NCBI GenBank assembly: GCA_023920165.1 | Contig: CP089276.1 | Coordinates: forward strand, 930,001-994,000 | Origin: Curvularia clavata | Lineage: Eukaryota | Direction of reading: 5' to 3' | Length of the DNA: 64,000 nt | Shown here: one piece after another, positions 25,111 to 33,989 of the stretch | Numbering within the stretch: position 1 is the first letter of the stretch | How the letters are laid out: every line of letters begins with the position of its first letter | The notes under the pieces: model-generated | The model's database searches: none | The model's input: only the letters and a program-made list of their open reading frames with translations | What the model was told of the DNA's origin: nothing | Position numbers and translations under genes: made by a program

Positions 25111-27553
25111 TATTGAAGCTGTGTTTGAATTATGTCAGAACGATGTGTTGGCAAGTCGGCAGGGTGGAACAAGAATAAATTGCTGGATGACTTGCGTGAC
25201 CGGGTGATAGAAGGATGGATGGAGAGAACAAACGGGGGAGCTGGGGATGTTTGCCTTATATGCTCACTTACTTTCACGACCATGGTACTTGAGTACTGGG
25301 TATTGGCCATGAAGCTCACAGAGTCATCAGGCAGCGACGATTTGTAGACGAATGACGAGTGGGTGGTGGGGATGGCGCGCCCAATGGTTTGTCTTCGTCA
25401 GTGTATGGTGAAAGAAGCGGGTGGAAAAATGGCCTGAACACCATGGTTGTGCACTGCAATGAGCAAATTCTCAAGTGGAACGACTTTTGATTCGGCCAAC
25501 GGGGCTTGTGACTGATAAATCTCTGGGGCAGCAGAGGCAGGACGAGGTAGAGCCGTAAGTTCCTGTCGAGGCCACCTCTTTTAGGAATATGCAGGATACG
25601 CCTGCGCGTGTGTTTGTAGGCAGTCGATCATGCCATGGGAAAAACGGCAAGCGGCATGGGCCATTGCAATGTACTGTCTGCATTTCAGACAGGAGAGCCA
25701 CATAGCTACAGGCTTCAACGGGTGTATAATGGGTGCAGAGGCGCTGCTAAGCCTGGCATTTCATGGTAGCAATGTTTACAAAGCCCACTCCAGCGATGTC
25801 GCCTCGTACGCCTAGCACCTTGCCCTCTATCGTGCCAGGCAGCGCTAGACTGCCGTCTGAATATCGAAATGGAAAGGGCAAAGCCACATTATTTACAGAC
25901 GAGAACCAGTAAGATTAAATAACACCTCTTCCGAGAATCACGTAGACCAGACAGTGCGAGGCACCCGTCGAGATTTCGCGATGTGCCAACCCTAGGTATT
26001 CATGAAGTAGAACCAGACCTGGCAATGGCAAGAAAGGAGTGGCTTTCGGATTGCTGGCTGGACTATGTGGCTTTGCATATGGCGGGCCGTGGAATCCTCA
26101 CGGTATTTCACCCACCTTCCTCTTTCTGAACCCACCTCAACATAGTGGTTTCCAGGCATCAAGTTGCAAACTCACCAGAGGTAGCTATCATTGTCGCTCA
26201 AGCCTGCAGATGACTCTTTGCCGTGCCAACGACGCGTCGCTAAGCCATGGGGCCATTACGAGGGCGTGAGAAGCCCTTCTGCATCTGTACACGCTGGCTA
26301 TTCGTATCCTACTAAGGCTGCCACAACACCTGAGAATTCGTATGAGAAGCCCACTGCAAAGTCCTATCTCAGCAGCGAGGACTGACATGGTTATGTCTTG
26401 TCTTGGTTAACTGCCGCTCGCTCACAGTACTCTGAGTCGTCTTACGCACCCTCCCAGTCGACCGCGCACGCAACACCATCATCTTTCCGAACTGGGCCAT
26501 ACTCGGCAGCCGATCCCAGCAGGATATTCATCAAAGCTGTTTATGCTTTGACCAATGAGATGACACGCAATTAAGGCGAGTGTGCTCCTTTAGAGCCATG
26601 GCATACAGGCTGAGAACCTCTCCAGACAGCACAAACACAGATAATCTGCGCGCGGAATATACAAGGCTTTGATCAGGAGGACATTTTCTGCTCGGTTTGG
26701 AACGTGAGCGCAACGGGAGTTACCACTGGGCCTTTTCGACGACGACAGTGCCGTTGTTCTGCGCAGGGACACGCCATTCACCTTTAGGACATCATGAATT
26801 GCTTTCGGATCCTTGCGAACAACGTAGCCGTATATGGCCCCTCAGAAAGCGCCTTACTACGTGCGTACCTGCACTCAGGACTCCATCGAAAACAGCGCCA
26901 TCTGTACGTGGGAAACGATACCTTGAGCCCTCCCAGAAACTCGAAGCAACGCTTCGCGGGCAAAGCCGAAGCTGTACAAGCCTGTGCGACGAATACTTGA
27001 CAAGGGGGAAACTAGGCCCTGTAGGCATCATACGTAGGAGTCTGGTTAGTGGAAGCCGCGGGTCAGCTTTTGTGGCCACCCTCTGCTCTTCTACGATAAT
27101 GTCGAGAACACCATCATAACTAGTCAAGGCTTGTAGTTACTGCCTTGAACAAACCTTTCTACAAAGAAACTCTGGTCTTCAGTATTGTGAAGAGAGCCTG
27201 TCTGTGCCGAGCGGAGAATCGACTTTGTGATGAATCCATTCGTAACAATGTACACCTTTACACTGCACCTGCTTCTATCCCTGTCGACCCGCATTCAATC
27301 ACTGTAGATATATGAATAGTAAAGCGCCTGGAATTGCCGTCCTCGTATTATCACAGCGAGCAATACAAAGCCTACTGCAGAGTCTCTCAAAGCACCAACA
27401 ACGCGCATTGCATACACCCCACCACCCATAGCCAGCCATATCTCGAAACCAGCAAAAATCAAACGCAGACAAGAATGGGTACTACCAAACTGCTAACACC
27501 TTGCAATGCTGAGCAGAGTACTAGCCAATCGTCCCAAAGCGCAAAAACAGTGC

Positions 27554-27560
27554 AAAAAAA
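27554..27560 (-). terminator. Oligo-T (T7) RNA polymerase III terminator just downstream of the tRNA
   Basis: aaaaaaa on the + strand, 5 nt past the discriminator base. Confidence 0.75.
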
Positions 27561-27565
27561 GATAG

Positions 27566-27699
27566 TGACAAGAGTGGGATTCGACTAGAGGGTGTTAGAA
27601 CTTGCAGTCTTAGAAAGGATTGGAGGTACAACATACACCCACGCAGATTTCTCTACTAGCACCTGAAGCTAGCGCCTTAGACCGCTCGGCCATCTTGCC
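27566..27699 (-). tRNA. tRNA-Leu(CAG) interrupted by a 52-nt GT-AG intron-like insertion (27585-27636) in the T-loop
   Basis: Acceptor stem GGCAAGA/TCTTGTC plus discriminator A; A-box TGGCCGAGCGG; anticodon stem CTAGC/GCTAG with loop TT-CAG-GT; long variable arm AGA-GAAA-TCT. T-arm GTGGG-TTCGAAT-CCCAC is restored exactly after removing 27585-27636. Confidence 0.93.
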
Positions 27700-27720
27700 G
27701 GAGTTATTTGAATACTCGAG

Positions 27721-27740
27721 CTATTATATCATATATATTC
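27721..27740 (-). promoter_or_regulatory. TATA-like element upstream of the tRNA
   Basis: Minus strand reads GAATATATATGATATAATAG, 22-41 nt upstream of the mature tRNA 5' end. Confidence 0.45.
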
Positions 27741-28824
27741 TTAGTAGTCTATTTCTCCAGTCATGGTTGCAGGGCGTTTTGTGTGTAGCGTCGAGGATGC
27801 GGGGCTGTGCGGCAGAAAATCATTCGCTGCCGAACCGAACACACGCATCAATTCAGGCGACCAGCAGCCGCGAACTAAGACTCAGCCAGAGAAAACCGCA
27901 TGAACAAGAGGCGCGCTACACTATCAAGATACCCAGTAGCTGCTGCTGCTGGCTCGATCTTGTTCCAGGCCCTCCTGCATCGGACTCATGATCCCGCTGC
28001 ATCCTCTGCATCTCACCTTCCATCCATCTCCCCCGCTACTCAAGCCTCCTACCTAGTCAGGCCCTCTATGCAAGCGTTCTAGACTCCCACGGTATCTATC
28101 AGGCGTCCAGTAAGCGAATGTGTAAAGCCCATTTCGGAAATATCCACTACTAGTCCTCTCGTTAGGCGAATCCCCGGTAGTACACATGTGTAGAAGATTG
28201 ATTTCACAGTGATGTAGGAAGAAAGCAGGGTTCCAGACCGCGGAGCGATAACACTGTGCGCTAGGAGAAAAGGAAAAAGATGGGTCTAGTGTTGCGCTGG
28301 TCAGACTCGCGTATGCGGGGGAGAATAGAAGCGAGAAGGGATCTTTTGTTTTTGCCAATGGGCTAGGGTGAGGGTGGATCACTGAAACGGCCTTTAGACT
28401 GGGATGAGGAGATGTGGAAAAAAGCAATGTTAGTCTAGAACGTCGACACGAAATACCGAAAAGTCTGGGGAAATTGATAAGGATGTACACTATGCTGGAA
28501 GAAGGAAAAGCAGCAGTGTCGGCTTTGAGCTGGAGAAGCAATGGGTGTAAGACCAGACTATTGGAACAGAAAAACAATCAAGACGACGTTTTATGACAGA
28601 ACAAGCAAGTAAAGTTGTAAAAAAGGGGCACAATCACGTAATGGAGTAGCATAGGCACACGAAGATGCATCTCGGCTTCTTCGCCGCAAAAAAAAAAAAC
28701 ATTGCATTTCTTTTGTTTTGCAACTGTCCAAAGAATTTCCAATTATGTACGAAGAACTACCGCACCACTACTCTGCGGAAACACCCCACCTCCAAGTTTA
28801 TGACCACCTTTTTCCCAACTCAAC

Positions 28825-29411
28825 CTACAAAGCAGCAGCCATGATACCTGCAACAACAGCCGCGAGACCAAACTCAAGCTTGCCGGCGCCGCTGTTGTTG
28901 GGAGCACGAGTAGAGGTAGCAGCAGGAGAGCTGGAAACGGGCGGCTTGGGTGTGCCAGTCGCAGCAGGCACAGTGCTGTTTCCGCTGTGGCTGCTAGAGC
29001 CGGAGCCAGTGCCAGTGGGGTACATGGGGGTGACATGCGAAGCTCCCGCGCCGGTAGACTTGGGGGACGAGCCAGTCGACAGAGGAGCCGTAGCAGAAGG
29101 CACGCCTGAGGCTGTATCATATTGATTAGCCCTACTATCCCTTTATAGTCGGACCCCATGTAATAGTTTGACTTACAGATCTGGACACTCTGGGCGTTGC
29201 AAATGTCGGCGAGCGCAGCCATAGCAGCGTCGGCGTCGTTGCCGCAGATCTTAGCAACCTCGGACTTGAGGTCCTTGGACTGGCAGACGCTCTTCATGTC
29301 GACGGGGCTGCTGAATTGGCTGGCGGCGCCAAGGAGGCAGGCAGGAGGCGTAGCCACGGCGAATTCAGCAAGCGCGAGGAGAGTCGCGGCAAATACAGTG
29401 CGTCCGAGCAT
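28825..29411 (-). CDS. Small secreted Cys-containing, Ser/Thr-rich GPI-anchored cell-wall protein; one intron near 29113-29176
   Basis: Signal peptide MLGRTVFAATLLALAEFAVA; TPPACLL...4-Cys domain; S/T/G stalk; NNSGAGK plus hydrophobic tail GLAAVVAGIMAAAL. Confidence 0.88.
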
Positions 29412-30347: not shown

Positions 30348-33300
30348 TCATGAGGTATGTATCTGTGGGGGGCTATTGCTGTGTGATCCAACCATGGACG
30401 GTATGGGCTTGCGGCGGGCTTTGGCCTGAGGCACACGAGGTGCGCCTTGAATGACGCGCGGCTCCTTCATCAGCGTCGGATCCAGTTTTGCGGGGACTAT
30501 CGATTTGTTAGCACAGTTAGGTCAATGGGGCTGTGAGGAACATACTCCGACTGACGACAGAGCGATAGTCGCCCGGGAAGCGTGAGTTTGGCGGGGTGGC
30601 AGCAGCGGTACGCCACAAGTGGTTCGTCGTGTCTGACAAAAAGTCTACTTTGGACTTGTAGAAGAACGCCGACTTTCCGCGATTGCGCTTCGCTAGGATA
30701 ACCTCATCAAAAAGTTTGATCGAAGGGTCGTCGGCTGGCTTGCTCTCGCGTTCGTGGATGAACTCATTGAAAGCTATTGGTTGTTAGCCATTGCACATCA
30801 AGGAAGAAGCAGTGCTACTGACCTTGCGTCTGCTGCAGTGTGGTAATGTACTGCACGTTTTCGGCCGGTAAGCTCTTCACAAACTCGTCCATCTTGAATT
30901 CGTAGTTCATGCCCTGCTTCTTGCGTTCTCCAGTAGCCGGAACTAGATAGCGTCGATAAGTATAGAACAGACTGGCAAAGCATCGTACAAACGATGCCCG
31001 CACTTGGTCTGGACGAAACGCCGAGGGACAGACGATGCAGATCGAGTCCACGCATCTGCCGTGCGCATACGTGCTGCAGCCTGATATCCTGAATTAGAAA
31101 CAATTGACACATGTCAAAAAAGGAAGCTTACCAGAACAGCGATAGAGACCATCATCCGCCTTTTCTTCGCAAACCGAGCAAGCAGCTCGATCTTCACTGG
31201 GTCTCCACTGCAGACAATGGCCTTCCTGCCATTGCGTGGTGGAGGTGTTGCGAACCGGCTGCACAGCCATGCCGGGCATAATTGTCGATGCAGCCAACGT
31301 CGACTGTGCATACACTGATGGCGCATACGAAGAGCCGCCCGCCTTGTACTCCTGACTAAGTGACGATGTGGAGGCACTTGGTGCGTGACCAAGGAACGGC
31401 TGAGAGGGGCGTCGGAGCGGGGGCACGCGCTCGAAACCAAACTAACCACGTTAGTTGTTTGACGATCAACATTTACAAAAATCAAACTTACCGATGAGCT
31501 TCGCCGACTTGACGAGTCAAAGTGGGCGGATCGCTTCTCGCGGAGGTTGGCCTGGAGAGCATATCCGGAATCACTCCGAGATATAGGTGTGCTTGGCATG
31601 GGCGGGAAAACAGTTGAGACAGGAGAAACTTTCGGCGAAGGTGGTGAGTGGTGTGACTTGATGGTGGTAGCCGTCGATGGCCTATCGTTTCCGCGACTCA
31701 AGGCGCTGGACTGCAGAAAGGCGTTGAAGATTAGCGGCCTCGAGCTCGATGGCCCAAGAATTGTGCCAAACGACGTCGAGTTCAATCCAACATAGCTCTG
31801 AATTGTCAGCGGTTGTGGTCGGTGTGAAAAGACGTTGGCATTTTCGGAAGCGAACGTGTCGAGTGGGAATGCCTCGATTGCGTAAGCGGGCGGACCAGCA
31901 GGCACGCCGTACTGTGCACGATGAGGGGCAGACTGCTGGAGCAAGGACATGAGTTTGCGTCGCTGCTGGCGCGGAAGTGCTGGTGGTGGGGGTCCGTTGG
32001 ATACTATCGAGTCGGCGTCCAAATCGACCAATACATAGTCGTCTTCAGGATAGTCGGTGGGCTCGTAACGACGTTCGATTCCCACAATATAGGGGCAAGG
32101 TGCTTCGATGGTCTGAACAAGACGAGAGGGCAGGACTGGAATAAAAACACCGGTCCATTGGAAGGGGTACAGGAGATTGGTGATTGCCATACTCGCCAGA
32201 TGCAGCATGGCCGTGTGAGAAGAAAGTAGAATGATCCTAGCCTCGGAGAGCACATACTCGAACAGAGTAACGATGTTGGGAATCGACATGCAGCGGAAGA
32301 GGGCGTAGATGTCAATGTTGCGGGACCCTGGCAACTCGTTCTCGGCCTCCTTGCGAGCATACATGCGAAGCTCTCGAACGCCGAGCTCGACCTGAGTGAT
32401 GGAGGTGATCGGACTAAGAGCCTCCGCACACAGATTGACGACGTAACGCTCGAGTGGCTGCCACATACCTACTCGCGGCGAGCTTGCTGGCACGCGGAGA
32501 ACCGCACCGCTGGTCATGGGTACAGTGACTGCCTTGAGCCACTCTTTCCAAAACGGTGTGAGACTGGCATCTCGACCCAAAACTCCGTAAGCACGTGGGA
32601 TCCATAGGCCAGTCTCCCCGTCAGTGAGACCCTCAATCTTCGAGGCCGCACCATGTCGTACTGGACGAAGCAAATCTGTCATGAGCTGAATCTTCTCTTC
32701 TACGGCTCCAATCTCATCGTCGAGCTTCTCGCGCTCCTCCGAGTCAAGGGGTACAGACGGAAGCTTGGTTAGTAGTTGTGACAACTTGGCACGCTCCAGT
32801 CCGAGACGCTCGCCCAGGCTGCTTGCCAATTCCCGTTCTTCGGGGTTCATGTGCAAGTTTCGCCATTCTTCACACTGACGTTCAAGACCCTCGGCAGCCG
32901 TAGAATTCAGAGGCAGCCACACGATGAGGCAGATACCGTACAGCTTTGATCCGTCTCCGTTGGTCATGGCGAAGCCATGCCACTGGCTCTTTGGCCGCTC
33001 GTCAGAGGATACGACGCTGACATCGTTTGGGAAAGCGAACATGGGTACATAATCGGGAAAGGGATTGCGTCTCTTGAGCTCCTCAACCATATTCCTTGGC
33101 GGGTAACGGTCCAGTAGGACAGGCTCGTAGCGGCGGAGCAGAGGATGCATGTCCGGGTCCGGTGCGAATGGCTGCGGTGCCGGTATTACAGAATTGTAGC
33201 CCGACATGCGCTTTGAAGTTCGGATCGAGGCTGCATGCACGTTAGCAATCTTTGATGCATGCAAAAAGCAGAGAAACCATGTCGTATCGTGCATATGGAC

Positions 33301-33989
33301 CAGGCCCAAGTGCAGCATCTATGACGGTTGTGTGCAGAATGTGATGTCGACTTACATTGCCGTGCCGTCGACGGTTGGCGCTTCAGGCTGCTCTGCATGG
33401 TAGAGATGCGTCTGCGGATGCTCCCAACACCGGATCTGAGGTTACCGACACCATCTTCGGGGTTAGCTTGCGAGACGCGTTGAGGTCGTGGGCGCGGCCT
33501 GGTGGGGGTCGAGCGAGAATGTTGTGCAACACCAGCGGTAAACTGTATCTCTTCCAGGAAGTTGTCGCGCTCCGACGCAAACTTGCGCAGCGCAATGTCG
33601 AATTCCTGGTCGCTCAAACCAGATCCGCCAAGCTGCACACCCTTGATGGTGGCGCTGCTTCGATTGCTCGCCGTTGGCTTTGCCTCTGCTCCAACGATTG
33701 TGCCGGATGATTGGCGGTTTGCAGAGCGGGACCGGGACCTTGACCGCCCTCTGTCACCGTTGCAGAGGCCGTCTTGTGATGATGGGCGAACAGAGTCTGT
33801 CTCGAGAGCGCGGTCTTCTTCAATGGTCTCGTCGACGGGCGGTTGTGCTAGTGGGGAGGTGACTATGACATTGTTCTGGGTGCGCTCGTCGTAGACCTGC
33901 GACGACTCGATGCCGGATATGAAGAAGTAGTCGGCGAGCGGGGGAGGAGCTTGATCAGCCGCGGAAGTGGAAGAGGGAGCAGGCGCCAT
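30348..33989 (-). CDS. DENN (AEX-3) domain Rab GEF with a C1-like zinc finger, 5 introns
   Basis: LADYFFISGIE; uDENN LLDRYP...PMFAFP; DENN core (VLSEARIILLS, YPFQWTGVFIPVLP, EAPCPYIVG); C1-like GHCLQW..CSVC..CSGCSTYAHGRC..C; dDENN QTQAFNEFI. Stop TGA at 30348-30350. Confidence 0.92.

Follow-up and report, generated by a model that had tools for sequence, protein, structure and literature searches.

A tRNA-Leu(CAG) gene of Curvularia clavata with a putative spliceosomal intron in its T-loop, and a family of similarly interrupted genes in related fungi

The stretch of Curvularia clavata DNA analyzed here (64,000 nucleotides [nt]; contig CP089276.1 of assembly GCA_023920165.1, positions 930,001 to 994,000; hereafter the window) carries on its minus strand, at 27566-27699, a transfer RNA (tRNA) gene for leucine with anticodon CAG, the T-loop of which is interrupted by an insert resembling the introns of messenger RNA (mRNA) genes (Table 1). 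A first-pass annotation made from the letters alone had read this segment as exon 1, a 52-nt insert (27636 to 27585), and exon 2, with a fungal donor, a branch site ending 9 nt from the 3' end of the insert, and a TAG acceptor, and every one of these elements was found where it had been placed. When the insert was excised in a script, ARAGORN called an 83-nt tRNA-Leu(cag) with the T arm GTGGG-TTCGAAT-CCCAC, which bears out the predicted cloverleaf; the unspliced gene gave no ARAGORN call, with or without the anticodon-loop intron option. In DNA letters the spliced junction is GTGGGT/TCGAATCCCAC, and by our reading of the sequence it is unique, as a shift by one base in either direction destroys the T-loop.

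Table 1. Features of the split tRNA-Leu(CAG) gene in the window and intron sites in the family of modelled genes
Feature	Position	Strand	Remarks
Exon 1 of tRNA-Leu(CAG), 63 nt	27637..27699	minus	acceptor 5' strand, D arm, anticodon arm (CAG), long variable arm, T-stem 5' strand, T54
Spliceosomal-type intron, 52 nt	27585..27636	minus	between T54 and U55
5' splice site GTATGT	27631..27636	minus	
Branch site TTCTAAC	27594..27600	minus	branch A at 27595; 10 nt after A to intron end
3' splice site TAG	27585..27587	minus	
Exon 2 of tRNA, 19 nt	27566..27584	minus	U55 to A73: rest of T-loop, T-stem 3' strand, acceptor 3' strand, discriminator A
A-box-like element TGGCCGAGCGG, uninterrupted	27682..27692	minus	tRNA positions 8 onward
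T7 run, likely RNA polymerase III terminator	27554..27560	minus	5 nt past tRNA 3' end
Second T run, T5	27543-27547	minus	
TATA-like elements TATATAT, TATAAT	27723..27738	minus	-38 to -24 from mature 5' end
Intron site in family	after tRNA nucleotide 6		L007
Intron site in family	after tRNA nucleotide 10		L018
Intron site in family	after tRNA nucleotide 14		L009
Intron site in family	after tRNA nucleotide 15		L001, L003, L016, L021
Intron site in family	after tRNA nucleotide 54		window, L005, L009 (L009/L017)
Intron site in family	after tRNA nucleotide 58		L001, L003, L007, L010, L021

The splice signals of the insert are too complete to be readily ascribed to coincidence. Hand arithmetic with base frequencies set equal puts the chance that a random insert would start with GT[AT]NGT, hold CTAA[CT] within a band of 7 positions close to the end, and finish with YAG at ~8e-7, and since the same three signals recur in 15 of 15 distinct homologous introns (see below), a chance origin is not credible. 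As a search pattern in the window, intron-like signals are not specific: a regular expression for them matched 25 times in the window against 19.3 times in shuffles. The expectation that the insert would resemble the local mRNA introns in size holds for the two that are verified by RNA in the window, which are 65 nt (29112-29176, minus strand) and 92 nt (28147-28238, minus strand) long. Runs of four or more T occur in 21% of 19 window intron candidates and in 2 of 15 tRNA introns, a comparison without power. The fold of the precursor is ordinary (z = -0.54). Introner-like elements exist in many near-identical copies per genome; a search for copies of the 52-nt intron, which covered the 64-kb window alone, returned no second one.

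Scanning metagenome contigs with the 24-nt exon-1 tail recovered 25 fungal loci, 14 of them with intron-like inserts. Together with the window these make 26 sequences, of which 23 were modelled; L002 and L025, the 5' ends of which are cut, and L024, which has an ordinary intron at 37/38, were left out. In each modelled gene at most one GT-AG or GC-AG solution per side restores the tRNA, and after excision all 23 give tRNA-Leu(cag), 15 of them with inserts and 8 uninterrupted. Once near-identical loci are collapsed, the window included, there are 10 distinct intron-bearing genes holding 15 distinct introns, one or two per gene, at six sites (Table 1). These introns are 49 to 69 nt long and begin with GT in 14 cases and with GC in 1 (GCAAGT); all 15 contain a branch motif (CTAAC in 12, CTAAT in 3) with 9 to 13 nt after the branch A, and they end in TAG (9), CAG (4), or AAG (2). 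The GC-AG boundary (GCAAGT...CAG) belongs to the D-loop intron at L016:1426-1477. The letters of exon 1 in the window are the same as those of the matching part of L001, L007, and L021, and GTATGT also starts the first intron of L001. A scan of prokaryote genome contigs for the A58-site pattern, run as a negative control, gave 5 chance matches, none of them in a tRNA.

The source of the window is fungal beyond its species label, in that the DENN-domain reading frame at 31114-33318 (minus strand) finds its closest named counterparts in Alternaria, Pyrenophora, Didymella, and other Pleosporales. One fungal DENN-domain protein, P0117, carries the name of a bacterial metagenome-assembled genome (Terriglobus roseus), and its source is probably a fungal contig that was binned into a bacterial genome. 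The excluded locus L024, from another fungus, has the same tRNA-Leu(CAG) with an ordinary 13-nt intron at 37/38, so that both kinds of intron, the 37/38 kind and the spliceosomal type, occur in this tRNA family.

An assembly or sequencing artefact at the locus would account for the insert without any intron, and we give this almost no credence: the same architecture is present in independent assemblies, in 14 of 25 metagenome loci spread over several projects, and 5' introns of the L007 and L018 types appear in loose contig ends of two DNA runs. The loose end in run X7, at window position 27697, matches the 3' part of an L007-type intron (after nucleotide 6), and that in run X12, at 27690, matches an intron of the L018 type (...GCTAAT...CAG, after nucleotide 10), so that Leu-CAG genes with introns are present in these independent DNA data sets as well.

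Genes of this kind are easily overlooked. Over the whole window ARAGORN reported no tRNA, and Rfam at its gathering threshold with default filters gave no match. With permissive filters, Rfam (Infernal) placed RF00005 over exactly 27566-27699 of the minus strand at 35.1 bits (gathering score, 29), with a 58-nt insertion in the T-loop, and found no family besides tRNA at this locus at an E value of <=10; with the same filters no other tRNA was found in the whole window or in the flanks of 15 loci. Among the relatives, for which 15 of the 25 loci were tested in this way, one per near-identical set, the uninterrupted genes scored 57 to 59 bits and L005 scored 38 bits, L018 and L002 were matched only partly, L010 fell below the threshold, and 6 of the 15 (L001, L003, L007, L009, L016, and L021) had no tRNA match at an E value of <=1. 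The first-pass annotation had supposed that the gene would be hidden from standard scanners, and this proved correct for ARAGORN and for the default Rfam filters, as well as for those six related loci. In the excerpted description of tRNAscan-SE 2.0, noncanonical introns are sought in archaea only (PMC8450103).

The sequence comparisons separate exons from introns. Mature tRNA identity between genes is 0.93 to 1.00, while same-site introns are 0.45 to 0.81 identical against 0.44 to 0.50 in shuffled controls, with flanks at 0.38 to 0.88; conserved exons and splice signals around a divergent intron interior are what the first-pass annotation had anticipated for a functional gene. These values indicate that the exons are under selection and that the introns, apart from their splice signals, are not. 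The intron-bearing genes have three types of acceptor stem (GGCAAGA/TCTTGTC, GGACAGA/TCTGTTC, and GGTGAGA/TCTCATC), all fully paired, which differ in a compensatory way at pairs 3-70 and 4-69; the two strands of this stem sit in different exons.

These results bear directly on the possibility that the window copy is a dead or dying gene with a chance intron-like insertion and that all tRNA-Leu(CAG) comes from intron-less copies. An intron-less paralogue in relatives, the decay of splice signals in the pair L003/L023, the disrupted B box, and the failure of default scanners to find the gene would all fit such a history, but the exons match those of the syntenic orthologues at 100% identity whereas flanking coding DNA is only 66 to 74% identical, the terminator and three splice signals are intact, the halves of the acceptor stem covary across intron-bearing genes, and a related strain shows no differences in exon 2 or in a 16-nt exon-1 tail, with five in the next 31 nt (contig record 9 of run X13, described below). 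We accordingly regard a dying gene as quite improbable, and the claim that a working gene has an mRNA-type intron between T54 and U55 gains support from the six-site family, the exon conservation, the acceptor covariation, and the T-loop introns of syntenic genes.

Synteny also shows how the introns move. The group that includes the window (L007/L020/L022 and L021) has in common a same-strand upstream two-exon gene, which blastn aligned to 28826-29383 of the window at 66 to 74% identity, and the mature tRNA of all these loci is exactly that of the window; the introns differ, being after nucleotide 54 in the window, after 6 and 58 in L007, and after 15 and 58 in L021. The T-loop intron of the window aligns with that of its syntenic orthologues at a 4-nt offset (alignment A1, of L007, L021, L010, and L001). 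At the 3' end the T54-site introns read TAG/TCGAATCC and the A58-site introns TAGTAG/ATCC, and it seems possible that the 4-nt shift came about by small changes at both intron ends, tolerated because other gene copies exist. The 5' introns at L007:1410-1467 (after nucleotide 6) and L021:1415-1476 (after 15) are 71% identical in the tRNA orientation, which on alignment identifies them as the same intron at sites 9 nt apart (a slide). The L007 5' intron ends in TTCAAG, an echo of the exon end GGCAAG. In a second synteny group, L004 and others are uninterrupted, L010 has an intron after nucleotide 58, L005 has one after 54, and L016 has one with a GC-AG boundary after 15; L004 and L010, without an intron and with one, respectively, have flanking reading frames that are 92% identical in protein. 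Because orthologous genes differ in the sites that are occupied, the introns are, from these comparisons, gained, lost, or shifted quickly while the tRNA sequence stays fixed.

Around the coding part, the window gene and its relatives have the layout of a tRNA gene for RNA polymerase III (Pol III). A run of T5 to T11 begins 5 to 14 nt past the gene in 23 of the 23 modelled genes, intron-bearing or not, and TATA-like motifs lie at -60 to -15 in 11 of 15 distinct genes, again with or without introns. The A-box assignment in Table 1 was made against the general consensus for that element. Four intron-bearing loci from two synteny groups (L001, L003, L007, and L021) have an upstream motif, GC(T/G/A)GCTTAGTCATA(G/C)A(C/A)ACA, at about -12 to -35, which is absent from the upstream region of the window gene; TTAGTCA resembles an AP-1/Yap-type site.

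RNA contigs of two sequencing runs, X13 and X15, bear on the locus; both runs have the same organism label as those that are likely to represent the source. That X13 and X15 are RNA runs is seen from the 65-nt intron of the upstream gene (29112-29176, GT..AG, minus strand), which is joined out in contigs with a depth of 100 and 183; the contigs show no RNA level, strand, start, or end. Record 9 of X13 (343 nt) spans 27258-27584 with 18 differences, which marks it as the 3' flank of the orthologous gene in a related strain. Beyond 27584 it continues for 16 letters that read as the exon-1 tail in reverse complement and thus give the exact exon1/exon2 junction. Because the assembly uses words of k=31 and exon 2 is 19 nt long, we reason that this record needs molecules with exon 1, exon 2, and trailer. 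Such molecules are either transcripts that are spliced but still untrimmed at the 3' end, or they come, as DNA or RNA, from an intron-less allele; splicing itself is thus indicated, not proven. The junction that the first-pass annotation had proposed to look for in RNA is therefore present, precisely and with the 3' trailer of this locus, while splicing and an intron-less allele are not separated by it. Exon 2 and the 16-nt tail show 0 differences in this record, and the next 31 nt of trailer show five.

Further contigs concern other copies and the surroundings. X13 and X15 each have a 1.4- to 1.6-kb contig (records 10 and 17) in which exon 1 is joined exactly to exon 2 (joint 27584->27637, skipping 52); the flanks are unlike the window and the acceptor stem is another one, which identifies an intron-less paralogue. 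Given this paralogue in relatives, and with intron-less orthologues common, the idea that the insert links CUG decoding to splicing is weakened. Record 16 of X15 stops at 27585, one base past exon 2, and that base belongs to the intron or is a mismatch. In the DNA runs X12 and X7 the bin depth is ~8 in 27522-27608, with none at 27535-27550, which is compatible with the intron being present or absent. The strain behind X13 and X15 differs from the window at 18/327 positions (27258-27584) and 7/189 positions (27693-27881) beside the tRNA, and at 0/211 to 5/282 further away; raised divergence next to active tRNA genes has been described. The upstream gene (28826-29411, minus strand) has two exons and is highly expressed; its start resembles a signal peptide, its second exon is rich in Ser, Thr, Pro, and Ala, and its exon 1 has no Pfam family. 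Between it and the tRNA lies an unannotated transcript with a 92-nt GT..AG intron (28147-28238, minus strand; GTCTGG...CTAAC...TAG), the X15 joint of which (28146->28239, skipping 92) is spliced in one low-depth contig and unspliced in another.

That transcript raises a different account of the same intron, in which the insert is truly spliceosomal and the tRNA derives from RNA polymerase II (Pol II) reading through from upstream, with splicing followed by release through RNase P and RNase Z and with the gene's own Pol III promoter idle. The low-level spliced minus-strand transcript just upstream (28146->28239 in X15), the RNA contigs that span the 3' flank for ~330 nt beyond the T7 run (records 9 and 16), and the split B box are in line with it. 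The T5 to T11 run after 23 of 23 genes and the TATA-like motifs at the same distance in both intron classes are instead a Pol III layout, the upstream neighbor varies between synteny groups so that a common Pol II host is unlikely, and the contigs give no strand, start, or end of the RNA. We consider read-through from Pol II unlikely.

Several observations weigh against a working, Pol III-transcribed and spliced gene. The B box is interrupted by the intron. Its closest counterpart in the unspliced window gene, TAGTCGAATCC at the intron/exon-2 junction, agrees with the B-box consensus at 7 of 10 specified positions; the A58-site genes (GGTTCGAGTAC) reach 9 and the intron-less genes all 10, and to judge from this count TFIIIC may bind only weakly at the split element. 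The pair L003/L023 has weakened signals (GTACCT, and GTTCGA after a 6-nt duplication), so that some family members look degenerate and not every member need be alive. The fast turnover of introns makes an intron-less allele in a near relative conceivable, and such an allele would explain the X13 junction equally well, intron presence being variable among orthologues (L004 against L010); moreover, that junction comes from the run of a related strain and not from the strain of the window. Neither a lariat nor an intron-containing precursor was seen in the contigs of the RNA runs, among which none of those listed for X13 or X15 covers 27585-27636 (a gap to which we attach no weight), and the intron-less paralogue of the relatives could make the window copy dispensable.

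Details of these elements are worth recording in their own right. In L003/L023 the first intron starts with GTACCT, the 6-nt duplication sits at the T-loop junction, and the D-loop has a T-to-C change; in the T-loop, no 5' site other than GTTCGA restores the tRNA, and a stronger one, GTACGT, lies 6 nt further inside. At the branch site (27594-27602 in the window) the three introns after T54 have in common (G)TTCTAA(C/T), a sequence like the B-box core GTTCGAA, and the L005 intron also contains CTTCGAGTCA. It is speculation that such branch motifs, or CTTCGAGTCA, might stand in for the split B box in the manner of the B box that reportedly lies inside the Schizosaccharomyces pombe U6 intron. 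The 5' splice site after A58 (GGTTCGAGTAC) and the branch region GTTCTAAC may double as B-box substitutes.

The remaining alternatives concern the machinery. A canonical tRNA intron of the Sen type was rejected on position (T54/U55 instead of 37/38), and a self-splicing group I or group II intron was rejected on the 52-nt length and the absence of any Rfam intron family at an E value of <=10. The eukaryotic tRNA endonuclease measures from the mature domain to 37/38. The insert could in principle be cut by the tRNA splicing endonuclease and sealed by a ligase, as are the noncanonical introns of archaea or Cyanidioschyzon, with no part for the spliceosome; tRNA introns cut at bulge-helix-bulge motifs outside the usual position are known elsewhere, according to the excerpted source (PMC3978253). 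Against this, all 15 introns have a full set of spliceosomal signals at fixed distances that would be useless to that enzyme, the junctions show no bulge-helix-bulge in the minimum-energy fold, and a central helix with all 4 bp paired was present in 0 of 15 introns, by a simple test that is weak, as the ordinary 37/38 intron of L024 fails it too. We hold cleavage by the endonuclease to be highly unlikely.

Weighing these lines together, we consider it probable that the window holds a working nuclear tRNA-Leu(CAG) gene of a member of the Pleosporales (Dothideomycetes), the T-loop of which is split by a U2-type spliceosomal intron, and that its Pol III transcript is spliced by the spliceosome. 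Pol III would start a few bases upstream of the gene, aided by the TATA-like elements, the intact A box, and the B-box remnant, and would stop at the T7 run. The precursor would be unable to form its T arm. U1 would pair with GUAUGU, and branch-site factors and U2 would act on UUCUAAC, after which the spliceosome would take the intron out as a lariat and join ...GUGGGU to UCGAAUCCCAC, as the signals and their conservation suggest; the U6 precursor of fission yeast, likewise a Pol III product, sets the precedent for such splicing. Splicing would precede 3'-end trimming, in keeping with the X13 contig that has the exact junction with the 3' trailer still attached, and the joined RNA would then fold into the cloverleaf, be trimmed, receive CCA, and read CUG.

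For the group as a whole, we lean toward the view that spliceosomal introns form an additional class of tRNA intron, one that has so far gone unlisted, and that Pleosporales-like fungi routinely splice Pol III pre-tRNAs. Such introns would occupy six or more sites, including ones that split the A or B box, and would slide over short distances, from 54/55 to 58/59 and, keeping one intron sequence, from 6/7 to 15/16; whole tRNA genes would be hidden from annotation, and GGTTCGAGTAC and GTTCTAAC may replace the B box.

Nuclear tRNA introns are taught as being of one kind, located at 37/38 and removed by a protein endonuclease. The reviews consulted keep tRNA introns fully apart from spliceosomal introns (PMC10275265; PMC12530127). 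Our searches of the full-text literature, which did not cover subscription journals, returned no report of a spliceosomal intron in a tRNA gene, in agreement with the first-pass annotation, which had known of no established case; spliceosomal introns in fungal genes for small noncoding RNAs are known, and on this literature search it is the tRNA as host RNA that is without precedent. If the proposed reading is true, these genes are a new class of spliceosome substrate and, beside U6, a second and much larger example of spliced Pol III transcripts, with a new order of pre-tRNA processing in which the T arm folds only after splicing. They would also be a clean system in which to study the gain, loss, and sliding of introns, the exon sequence being fixed to the base. 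Finally, tRNA gene counts and codon-adaptation measures would be too low for these fungi, because 6 of the 15 related loci have no tRNA match at an E value of <=1 and tRNAscan-SE 2.0 is described in the excerpt as limiting noncanonical introns to archaea (PMC8450103).

The interrupted genes can be set beside several known systems. Group I and group II introns in bacterial and plastid tRNA genes are self-splicing, structured, and hundreds of bases long. The likeness to them is that a tRNA gene is interrupted by an intron class otherwise found in other genes, but the intron described here has 52 nt and no match to an Rfam intron family at an E value of <=10, whereas theirs are long, structured, and organellar or bacterial. 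Canonical eukaryotic tRNA introns lie at 37/38 and are removed by the Sen endonuclease and a ligase, and in the excerpt of the 2023 review that describes them the spliceosome is mentioned once, as a contrast to tRNA splicing (PMC10275265); the same excerpt states that pre-tRNAs are capped in part. As with those introns, a nuclear tRNA gene is interrupted and removal is needed before the tRNA works; unlike them, the present introns lie at 54/55 (in relatives, at 6, 10, 14, 15, and 58), have GT, CTAAC, and AG signals, and are 49 to 69 nt long, like local mRNA introns. Archaea and Cyanidioschyzon have tRNA introns at noncanonical positions, multiple ones included, with bulge-helix-bulge motifs, as far as the excerpted sources go (PMC3978253; PMC8450103). 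They resemble the present ones in lying in the D and T regions, in numbering up to several per gene, and in hiding genes from standard scanners, but they are an RNA structure cut by a protein endonuclease, whereas here there are sequence signals and no such structure, with the caveat that the bulge-helix-bulge test is weak and that L024 fails it as well.

Other noncoding RNA genes of fungi provide the remaining comparisons. Spliceosomal introns occur in the U1, U2, and U5 small nuclear RNA (snRNA) genes of Rhodotorula hasegawae and in ribosomal RNA (rRNA) genes of ascomycetes (Takahashi et al. 1993, 1996; Bhattacharya et al. 2000, cited in the excerpt of PMC5855946), and the noncoding RNAs that this excerpt names as having them are U6, U2, U5, U1, and rRNA, with no tRNA named in it. 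The tRNA introns are like these in being spliceosomal introns in fungal noncoding RNA genes, and the example of rRNA demonstrates that such introns are not confined to Pol II transcripts; the host RNA and the polymerase differ. In S. pombe, U6 is a Pol III transcript from which the spliceosome removes an mRNA-type intron, and other fungal U6 genes have multiple introns (Tani and Ohshima 1989, 1991; Canzler et al. 2016, cited in the excerpt of PMC5855946). The tRNA differs from U6 in that it is not a spliceosomal RNA, so that the usual origin of U6 introns, reverse splicing into the RNA of the catalytic center, is not obviously applicable, and in that before splicing it cannot fold into a substrate for RNase P, RNase Z, or the modification enzymes. 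Like fungal U6, however, it combines a short GT-AG intron and branch site with a small, highly conserved noncoding RNA gene of the Pol III type that ends in a T-run terminator; a gene may hold up to several introns, their sites vary, and their sequences have nothing in common beyond the signals. The internal promoter, too, is affected by the intron, as it is in S. pombe U6, where a B box reportedly lies inside the intron (Frendewey et al. 1990).

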